DNA of 32,000 bases from an uncultured archaeon (GTDB lineage Archaea > Asgardarchaeota > Jordiarchaeia > Jordiarchaeales > Jordiarchaeaceae): NCBI GenBank assembly GCA_964510585.1, contig CAZECW010000140.1, positions 22,135 to 54,134 of the forward strand, read 5' to 3'. Shown here in pieces: positions 8,887 through 12,407 of the stretch. The position numbers were made by a program, and so were the translations under genes. The notes beneath the pieces are model-generated. The model was not told where the DNA came from and searched no databases. It was given only the letters and a program-made list of their open reading frames with translations. The first letter of the stretch is position 1. Every line of letters starts with the position of its first letter.

Positions 8887-9873
8887 TCATCTTTTAAAGT
8901 GTTCGTACCCCTTTGGATATATTCTTCTTTCAGTTTGGTTAGGTAGACGTAGCACCATATTTTTTTCTTCAGTTACAATTCCTATGGGGTACAAGTTGCC
9001 TCCAACGATCTTTACTGCATCTACGGCTTTGTTCCATTTCACGGAAGGAACTGTGACTACAAGTTCGAATTCTTCGCCACCATACAGTGCAAGATCAAAG
9101 TAGTTTAGTCCGTGTTCATTTGCAAACATTTGCACCTCTTTTGGGACGGGTATTGAATCAATAATAAATCCCACGCCGCTCATCTGTGAGATCTCGTAAA
9201 GCGACCAAGCTAGACCGTCGCTACTATCAATGCTGGAGGACGCGAGACCCCGCTCAGATAGAACTATCCCTTCTTTCAAACGGGCATGAGGTTCATAAAT
9301 GGCGCGTAAACCCAACTCTTTAGTCCTCGAGTCAGCGCTCAATTTTTCGAATAGTATCTTGAAGCCCATGGCGGTTAAGCCGAAATGTCCAGTAACAGCT
9401 ACTATGTCTCCAGGATGCGCCCCCCTGCGTGAAACGATTTTATTTCTTTCAACTATCCCAAAAACGGCTCCCGAAACCACAAGATCGGAACACTCATTGG
9501 TATCACCCCCCAAGTAATAAAATCCATACTCCCTGCAACCCGCATTTAGTCCCTTAACCAAATCTGCAGCTTCATCCCGAGTTGTCCCCCTCGGAAAACC
9601 CAGGGAGAAAACGCCACCCATTGGTTTGGCGCCCTTAGCAACAACATCGCTCACATTCATAACAGCTGCTTTTCGCCCCACCTGCCAATATGTCATACCA
9701 GGAGGAACATCTGTTTTACCCACAAGCATATCTGTGTTAACTATCAGAACATCGTTTCCGAAAGGAATCCCCACAGCGTCATCACCATAAGGCAAAACCG
9801 CACGCGGAAAGCTATCGATTAAGGTGTGAAATAATTCAATTAATCCACGCTCACCCACATCTTCCACAGTCAT
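8887..9873 (-). CDS. thiL: Thiamine-monophosphate kinase
   Basis: GERGLI, GDDA, NTDMLV, NVSDVVAKGAKP, GGDTN, DSSDGL, GGEEFEL. True start 9873; the ORF-track extension to 10026 runs through tRNA-Thr. Confidence 0.95.
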   Translation of the reverse strand: MTVEDVGERGLIELFHTLIDSFPRAVLPYGDDAVGIPFGNDVLIVNTDMLVGKTDVPPGMTYWQVGRKAAVMNVSDVVAKGAKPMGGVFSLGFPRGTTRDEAADLVKGLNAGCREYGFYYLGGDTNECSDLVVSGAVFGIVERNKIVSRRGAHPGDIVAVTGHFGLTAMGFKILFEKLSADSRTKELGLRAIYEPHARLKEGIVLSERGLASSSIDSSDGLAWSLYEISQMSGVGFIIDSIPVPKEVQMFANEHGLNYFDLALYGGEEFELVVTVPSVKWNKAVDAVKIVGGNLYPIGIVTEEKNMVLRLPNQTERRIYPKGYEHFKR

Positions 9874-9906
9874 TAAGAACCACCCAAAAAGCTGATAAAA
9901 AGGAAC

Positions 9907-10062
9907 TGGAGCCCCGGGCGAGGTTTTTGGAGCAGCAGAAATTGCAAGCTCTATCGAACTCGCGACCGTCAGCTTACTCAGACCACACTTTGAATGTGTG
10001 ATTGTACGAGGCTGCTGCTCTGCCACTGAGCTGTCTCGCCTCTGTTTCAGAGGAACCGAGGC
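9907..10062 (-). tRNA. tRNA-Thr(CGT) with three introns (10033-10054 at 8/9, 9975-10004 at 37/38, 9924-9952 at 59/60); CCA encoded
   Basis: Acceptor GCCTCGG/CCGGGGC, U73-CCA, D-arm GCTC-AGTGGCA-GAGC, loop CT-CGT-AA, T-arm GCGAG-TTCGATC-CTCGC; each intron has BHB geometry. Confidence 0.9.
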
Positions 10063-10212
10063 TCACCGAAGGCTCCATCTTTTACTAAAGAGTTCAAAGC
10101 ATTAATAATCTTTACTATGTGTGTCCAATGTGTCAATTTTTAATGTTAAAAAATCGAAGGATAACTAAGCGGGAAGCGGCATAAAAGATTCATTTAGTTG
10201 TTTTGGGAGTGA

Positions 10213-10357
10213 TGGTGCTCCGGCCGGGAGGCTCAAACTAAGTTTAAAGGTTAGCTTAGTTATTTGAACCCGGGTCAAAGGATCGATTGGGCAGATTTTC
10301 TTGAGCCCCTTATGCTTGGTCCATTTGGTTTGTTTGACCGGACTACACCACCGGAGC
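10213..10357 (-). tRNA. tRNA-Glu(CTC) with three introns (10316-10333 at 21/22, 10287-10302 at 34/35, 10230-10262 at 59/60); CCA encoded
   Basis: Acceptor GCTCCGG/CCGGAGC-A-CCA, GTGTAGTCCGGTCAA D-arm, variable TGAC; central helices GGTC/GACC, GGGC/GCCC, TTCA/TGAG. Confidence 0.9.
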
Positions 10358-11736: not shown

Positions 11737-11861
11737 GGGCCCATAGCTCAGCCTGGTATGAGCGCCGCGTTACTCATACCCTACTAACAAGGGCATGAGG
11801 GCGAAGGCAAGCTATCCCAAAATCGCGGAGGCCGCGAGTTCAAATCTCGCTGGGTCCACCA
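11737..11861 (+). tRNA. tRNA-Ala(GGC) with two introns (11772-11805 at 33/34, 11810-11822 at 37/38) and a 4-nt anticodon exon; CCA encoded
   Basis: G3:U70 acceptor GGGCCCA/TGGGTCC-A-CCA, Ala-type D-arm GCTCAGCCTGGTATGAGC, stem CCGCG/CGCGG; spliced loop TT-GGC-AT. Confidence 0.85.
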
Positions 11862-12306: not shown

Positions 12307-12407
12307 TGGTGGACACTGCGAGATTTGAACTCGCGGCCTCCTGGATGCGAACCAGGCGCTCTTGGATACCGCTTGTTTGGCGGAATCTTCCACTGAGCTA
12401 AGTGCCC
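12307..12407 (-). tRNA. tRNA-Ala(CGC) with one 26-nt intron (12361-12386 at 22/23); CCA encoded
   Basis: G3:U70 acceptor GGGCACT/AGTGTCC, arm CCTGG-TT-CGC-AT-CCAGG, central helix TGGA/TCCA with outer CCGC/GCGG. Confidence 0.92.

Follow-up and report, generated by a model that had tools for sequence, protein, structure and literature searches.

The locus described here raises two linked questions: whether the 22 nt that separate bases U8 and A9 of a tRNA-Thr(CGT) gene constitute a spliced bulge-helix-bulge (BHB) intron and, if they do, how the precursor folds into a splicing motif built from bases of the acceptor and D stems. We analyzed a stretch of DNA of 32,000 nt (the window) from an Asgard (Freyarchaeia) assembly of hot-spring origin.

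Organization of the tRNA-Thr(CGT) gene

The only tRNA-Thr(CGT) gene detected, with three introns, occupies positions 10062..9907 of the minus strand; the strand had been left unstated in a preliminary description of this DNA. Exon 1 (G1-U8, GCCTCGGT; 10055..10062), delimited from the sequence and by ARAGORN, is followed by intron 1 at position 8/9 (22 nt; 10033..10054) and by exon 2 (A9-A37; 10005..10032), which contains the D arm and the 5' side of the anticodon stem, with the anticodon CGT at 10008..10006. Intron 2 is located at the canonical position 37/38 (30 nt; 9975..10004), exon 3 comprises A38-U59 (9953..9974), and the T loop harbors intron 3 at 59/60 (29 nt; 9924..9952). Exon 4 (9907..9923) comprises C60-U73 (9923..9910) and a genome-encoded CCA (9909..9907). 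Exons 2 and 3 were delimited by ARAGORN, and the boundaries of intron 2 and the position of intron 3 match the tRNAscan-SE calls for the orthologue of Freyarchaeia-1. Intron 3 also forms a BHB, whose central helix contains one C.A mismatch. A 9-nt segment of intron 3 (CTGCTGCTC) that is complementary to bases 22-30 was dropped from consideration, as it was not kept in the orthologues G005 or G002.

A promoter-like BRE/TATA element (AAGATTATTAATG; 10100..10112, minus strand) is situated at about -50 to -38 from tRNA base 1, and the 5' leader, -17..-1, corresponds to 10063..10079. Given the position of the promoter-like element, the whole leader segment should be transcribed. Two T5 runs at 9886..9901 likely mark the transcription stop. 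In Freyarchaeia-1, many tRNA genes possess an AAAA(A/T)TTA-type element ~35-50 nt upstream, a spacing that implies leaders of roughly 10-20 nt, and the CCA end is encoded in every one of the listed tRNA genes of that genome. Approximately 35 nt past the tRNA, a protein gene that is conserved among the sister species starts on the minus strand (9850-9872; ATG ACT GTG GAA GAT GTG GGT GAG CGT GGA...). This gene explains both a weak Rfam match to ceN46 and a mechanically called open reading frame (8887-10026) that runs into the tRNA.

When the three inserts were excised, ARAGORN reported tRNA-Thr(cgt) with a regular cloverleaf, and when the 22-nt insert at 8/9 was left in, there was no call. ARAGORN found no tRNA genes in the unspliced window. 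Rfam missed the Thr(CGT) gene and, over the window, detected other tRNA genes only (11737-11858 and 12310-12407); with E values up to 10, the region 9700-10300 yielded just chance matches, such as that to ceN46. By trying BHB excisions we found an additional gene, tRNA-Glu(CTC), at 10213-10357 of the minus strand, which was also missed by ARAGORN and Rfam. It possesses three introns: 18 nt in the D loop (10333..10316), 16 nt (10302..10287) and 33 nt at 59/60 with a strict BHB (10262..10230). At the corresponding place of Freyarchaeia-1, a published table lists 'Met CAT' (no. 31) and no tRNA-Glu is listed for that genome (PMC11291895, Suppl. Data 4); the 'Met CAT' label may be wrong. These standard finders therefore missed two of the four tRNA genes in the window entirely.

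A second Thr(CGT) gene was not found in the assembly, which is 96% complete. The Thr(CGT) gene need not be essential, since tRNA-Thr(UGU) could read ACG codons.

A strict BHB motif between bases 8 and 9

The preliminary description had claimed a 22-nt insert at 10033-10054 and had drawn a set of pairings around it. The insert is confirmed between U8 (10055) and A9 (10032), and all of the pairings are present; the drawing is also identical to the minimum-free-energy (MFE) fold of the 49-nt stretch, a strict hBHBh' of -17.4 kcal/mol. In this fold, C3-G6 (CUCG) pairs with CGAG of the intron to form a central helix in which 4/4 positions are paired, and this helix is bordered by two bulges of 3 nt each, GU|U (G7-U8|U) and AC|A9. 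The intron hairpin (CCUCUG/CAGAGG) has 6 bp and an AAA loop, and the outer helix has 5 bp, in which U-3, G-2, A-1, G1 and C2 pair with G10-A14. The insert thus has the structural attributes of a BHB intron, namely a 4-bp helix, two opposite 3-nt bulges with the predicted cuts behind the second base of each, flanking helices of at least 2 bp and a regular tRNA after excision.

The shape of the motif was rejected as evidence in itself. The z-score of the 49-nt fold was only -1.37, and BHB-shaped motifs were not enriched over shuffled windows: the strict setting detected 5 in the window and 0-6 in the shuffles, and the loose setting detected 36 and 25-44, respectively. When all cut pairs were tried, a single one restored GCCUCGGU-AGCUCAG, and this was exactly the strict hBHBh' pair. 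We estimated from these motif counts that ~2e-6 motifs are expected by chance at one given cut pair. The placement of the 8/9 motif, unlike its shape, is beyond chance, and the evidential weight lies in this placement together with conservation among relatives.

Among the sequencing runs listed as containing the locus, none was identified as RNA. Contigs assembled from four sequencing runs, of which two are labelled metatranscriptomic but are probably DNA, contained only the unspliced locus and no joints, and are uninformative on expression.

Conservation of the motif among relatives

A pattern scan identified the close relatives as Candidatus Freyarchaeota / Jordarchaeia metagenome-assembled genomes, including the complete Freyarchaeia-1 chromosome (CP147778), and the runs that contained the locus were hot-spring metagenomes. 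A separate pattern scan of metagenomes gave four matches, one of which was a true relative; in the other three, an ordinary tRNA gene happened to have a matching upstream segment. We compared seven sequences, representing six species of the genus (five besides the present one) and one metagenome contig.

The central helix was paired at 4/4 positions and both bulges were 3 nt long in all seven sequences, with flanking helices of 4-6 bp (h') and 4-5 bp (h). Intron 1 was 21, 22, 25 or 26 nt long. The only bases that had changed were base 3 of bulge 1 and base 2 of bulge 2, along with bases in the loop and at the tip of the hairpin, as expected if selection acts on the splicing motif only. The T stem read GCGAG/CUCGC, GCGGG/CCCGU or GAGGG/CCCUC among the orthologues, and these compensating changes indicate that the gene is under selection as a tRNA. 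Base pair 27:43 is G.A in four of the species. Further, the orthologue G002 has no intron 2 and its exon reads through, which confirms the boundaries of that intron. In the same orthologue (L006, 1440-1500), the T stem would have a U52.C62 mismatch (GCGTG / CCCGC) if the intron lay at the position found in the others; either its T stem is imperfect or its T-arm intron is placed differently.

Splicing enzymes encoded by the genome

The assembly encodes two EndA paralogues (PF01974; 108 and 80 bits) and RtcB (578 bits). Paralogue 1 (192 aa) aligned best with the catalytic subunits 3p1z_B, 3ajv_B and 2zyz_B and keeps the Tyr, His and Lys residues. These subunits belong to the heterotetrameric enzymes of A. 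pernix (Aeropyrum), S. tokodaii (Sulfolobus) and P. aerophilum (Pyrobaculum). Its Crenarchaea-specific loop (CSL; GQPLGIRKPKSPQF versus GQPLDVEKPRGADF) aligns without gaps and places K-P-K at K44-P-R46 of A. pernix; experimentally, the CSL confers a broad substrate range, with roles for K44 and R46 (PMC3241643). Paralogue 2 (198 aa) has Thr at the position of the catalytic His in an alignment to 1a79 and is probably the structural subunit. We infer from these alignments a putative alpha2-beta2 EndA of the Crenarchaea type.

The rtcB gene, which lies outside the window (G000:C58; ~1564-1593 of L087), is itself interrupted: an insert of 30 nt, which contains a TGA in frame, divides its LPD|AHQGYG motif. 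The flanks of this insert are BHB-like (CCCG/CGGG, with bulges AC|A and AA|G). All five sister species possess such an insert, of 29-31 nt; its interior diverges among them, and in each species it brings in a stop or shifts the frame. The mRNA of the ligase thus probably needs BHB splicing as well.

The proposal of a BHB intron at 8/9 is supported, as removal of the insert is needed for the tRNA call, the core of the motif is invariant and the enzymes are encoded. We consider it highly probable that the insert is a real intron and is spliced.

The leader carries a near-copy of exon 1

The leader contains, at -16..-6, a repeat (GAGCCTTCGGT) of the segment from -2 to U8 (GAGCCTCGGT) plus one extra T. 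The leader thus nearly duplicates exon 1 at -15..-4 (10077..10066), and its positions -3..-1 form part of the outer helix of the 8/9 motif. The segment -15..-4 is complementary to C66-A76 (9917..9907) over 11 bp with one bulged U, including the discriminator base and CCA, and the resulting helix adjoins the outer helix of the motif. The complementarity runs 4 bp past the copied exon, into U73-C74-C75-A76.

Positions -15..-1 were identical in the seven sequences save one change at -3. The A/T-rich promoter-like block is conserved in all orthologues, and the DNA between this box and -16 diverges among them. Of the 38 tRNA genes annotated in Freyarchaeia-1, that for Thr(CGT) had by far the strongest duplex between leader and 3' end (-15.8 kcal/mol), and the runner-up among the credible duplexes had -8.6 kcal/mol; the value for SeC was set aside, as it looks like a boundary artefact. 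A pairing of leader positions -5..+1 with T-stem bases 61-66, present in the MFE fold of this genome, was regarded as incidental: the T stem differs in the other sequences and, judged by eye, the pairing is lost in at least two of them.

Competition between the BHB and the cloverleaf

The motif uses bases 1-6 and 10-14, and the acceptor and D stems must therefore be unfolded when it forms, as had been claimed before; the folding calculations agree. In a precursor that retained intron 1 only, a cloverleaf-type fold had -35.5 kcal/mol; the BHB fold had -27.7 kcal/mol when the leader helix was left out and -44.9 kcal/mol when it was included. In the precursor that retained all of its introns, the central BHB helix had an ensemble probability of 0.91 for the native leader versus 0.00 for a leader cut to 3 nt. 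In silico, the leader would thus tip the precursor from the cloverleaf toward the spliceable fold.

When leaders of the same composition were shuffled, 18 of 60 equaled the BHB probability of the native leader, so that the computed effect owes much to a G+C-rich leader as such. Further, there was no covariation between the leader and the 3' end in the seven sequences to prove the pairing, because both are invariant. The nearest-neighbour model favored the leader helix even with all introns spliced out. Since some shuffled leaders do as well and covariation is absent, we treat the helper role of the leader as a reasoned hypothesis rather than as a result, and give it even chances.

A similar arrangement in a second Asgard family

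We examined the distribution of the arrangement among the Thr(CGT) loci returned by a search of 300 genomes of the phylum. The junction between bases 8 and 9 was uninterrupted in eleven loci from seven other families, among them the sister family within the same order, whose intron is in the D loop instead. A collinear arrangement was found in five genomes of a second Asgard family, which belongs to a different order. There, an upstream copy (GCCCCGGT) is followed by a 4-nt spacer, GCCTCGGT, a 29-nt insert and AGCTCAG. The insert is located at 8/9 (or 9/10) and is similar to the Freyarchaeia intron in its hairpin and its 3' part; in the MFE fold, pairing of the upstream copy with the 3' acceptor strand is perfect. 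A shift of 2 nt affects the 3' half of the motif, and no canonical BHB was found in any cut register or in a free BHB search. Two genomes of this family contain a further upstream repeat of the unit.

Proposed pathway and alternative readings

We infer the following scheme for cleavage itself, for the part played by the leader and for the succession of events. The transcript would carry a leader of ~15-19 nt and three protein-spliced introns. Its first ~50 bases would form a local strict BHB in which the intron is combined with positions -3..-1 of the leader, 1-6 of the acceptor stem and 10-14 of the D stem, and the acceptor and D stems could not form, because their bases are engaged in the motif. 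Bases 66-76, which comprise the 3' acceptor strand, the discriminator base and CCA, would pair with leader positions -15..-4, a segment that would stack under the motif. An EndA of the alpha2-beta2 type would cut both 3-nt bulges, after U8 and before A9, and RtcB would join the exons. The genuine 5' strand would then displace the leader, the cloverleaf would form and the leader would become removable by RNase P; trimming of the 5' end would have to come after removal of the 8/9 intron. We consider the complete scheme, with the gene, the BHB intron, the leader pairing and the order of steps, to be reasonably probable.

The intron could be real and spliced while the upstream near-copy of exon 1 is a scar of its origin that has no role in folding. 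The scar could have arisen by a small tandem duplication or by recombination with an intron-bearing copy, and the leader does read as a tandem repeat, GAGCCTTCGGT followed by GAGCCTCGGT. A precedent is a tRNA-Thr of Caldiarchaeum, described in PMC3293823, which has a displaced 5' tRNA fragment beside a gained intron. The frequent preference of shuffled leaders for the BHB fold and the lack of covariation also agree with this reading. However, a scar should drift, yet -15..-1 is as conserved as the exons, whereas the spacer, the intron loops and the downstream DNA diverge. Further, the complementarity continues for 4 bp beyond the copied exon, and in the second Asgard family a collinear upstream copy is retained, with perfect pairing to the 3' strand of the same tRNA. 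We therefore regard a scar without function as less likely.

A decaying or silent tRNA gene, in which the BHB-like fold is fortuitous, would fit the weak z-score of the fold, the abundance of BHB shapes by chance and the G.A mismatch at 27:43. This is very improbable, because the motif sits at the sole cut pair that restores a perfect tRNA and is kept in seven sequences despite indels in its loop, the T stem shows compensating changes, a promoter-like box and a T-run are present, and the assembly yielded no further Thr(CGT) gene.

Retention of the 22 nt, with an additional hairpin separating the acceptor stem from the D arm, is energetically reasonable (the -35.5 kcal/mol fold combines the cloverleaf stems with the insert hairpin) but scarcely credible. 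Selection preserves the CGAG strand, the partner of bases 3-6 of the acceptor, and keeps both bulges at exactly 3 nt, beyond what a mere hairpin needs; the two other inserts in this gene are BHB introns of the ordinary kind, and an insert between U8 and A9 would disrupt the U8-A14 and A9 core contacts. We thus retain the reading of a spliced BHB intron whose leader may assist its folding.

Relation to known introns and split genes

The preliminary description had suggested that an intron at 8/9 might be new. Yoshihisa's review, which names 20/21, 22/23, 25/26, 29/30, 30/31, 45/46, 53/54, 56/57, 59/60 'etc.' and 3/4, does not name 8/9 (PMC4090602), and a text search of the literature, with older catalogues outside its scope, returned no discussion of a tRNA intron at 8/9. 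Novelty is limited, however, because tRNAscan-SE had already called the orthologous intron after base 8 in Freyarchaeia-1. The published table lists tRNA no. 32 of that genome as Thr CGT (1545409-1545248) with three tRNAscan-SE introns and a mature score of 66.2 bits, the first intron being 26 nt long (1545401-1545376) and located after gene base 8 (Valentin-Alvarado 2024, PMC11291895, Suppl. Data 4). This gene (CP147778) is an orthologue of the present one, with 82% identity over the locus and agreement at all three intron positions; its intron 1 of 26 nt has an 11-nt loop, compared with 22 nt in total here. The source gives coordinates alone, leaving position, motif and leader uncommented, and among its rows that we examined, no other gene of Freyarchaeia-1 or Atabeyarchaeia-2 has so early an intron (PMC11291895). 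As far as we have seen, the 8/9 intron is therefore catalogued in a table yet undescribed.

The 8/9 intron resembles the non-canonical BHB introns of archaea (Thermoproteales, including those at 3/4, Thaumarchaeota and Asgard) in its motif and flanking helices, in the enzymes expected to process it (a broad-specificity EndA and RtcB) and in the presence of several introns per gene. In those introns, as here, the BHB motif borrows exon bases and thus competes with the mature fold. A census of hidden introns in Asgard covers Freyrarchaeaceae and reports that a tRNA gene has ~2.2-2.4 intervening sequences and that canonical BHB boundaries are in strong excess (bioRxiv 10.64898/2026.10.13.758758). 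Unlike in the non-canonical introns, the outer helix here uses bases of the 5' leader, and the copy of exon 1 in the leader can capture the 3' acceptor strand; we found no description of such a leader in the literature searched.

Split and permuted tRNA genes (Nanoarchaeum, Caldivirga, Thermofilum) likewise have transcribed extra sequence outside the mature tRNA, and a helix between complementary leader and trailer presents the BHB to EndA (PMC3293823, PMC3218864). In contrast, the present gene is continuous, and its leader helix is without a cleavage site and seems only to occupy the 3' acceptor strand.

Implications

The intron extends a known class by a rare position and had already been annotated automatically in a sister genome. 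Because the acceptor and D stems meet at this position, the precursor can adopt either the splicing motif or the tRNA fold but not both. The conserved leader offers a testable answer on how this conflict is settled and in what order EndA, RtcB and RNase P act. What may go beyond the existing record is the leader standing in for the acceptor strand, as the folding calculations suggest.

We tentatively propose a general rule, to which we give slightly less than an even chance, that introns in or beside the 5' acceptor strand persist only where the leader provides a 'stand-in' acceptor strand. If the rule is true, the stand-in would park the 3' end with its CCA, favor the BHB and force splicing ahead of RNase P. 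The second Asgard family offers a collinear case. The leader of the Freyarchaeia tRNA-Thr(CGT) gene would then be one clear case of a so far undescribed rule.
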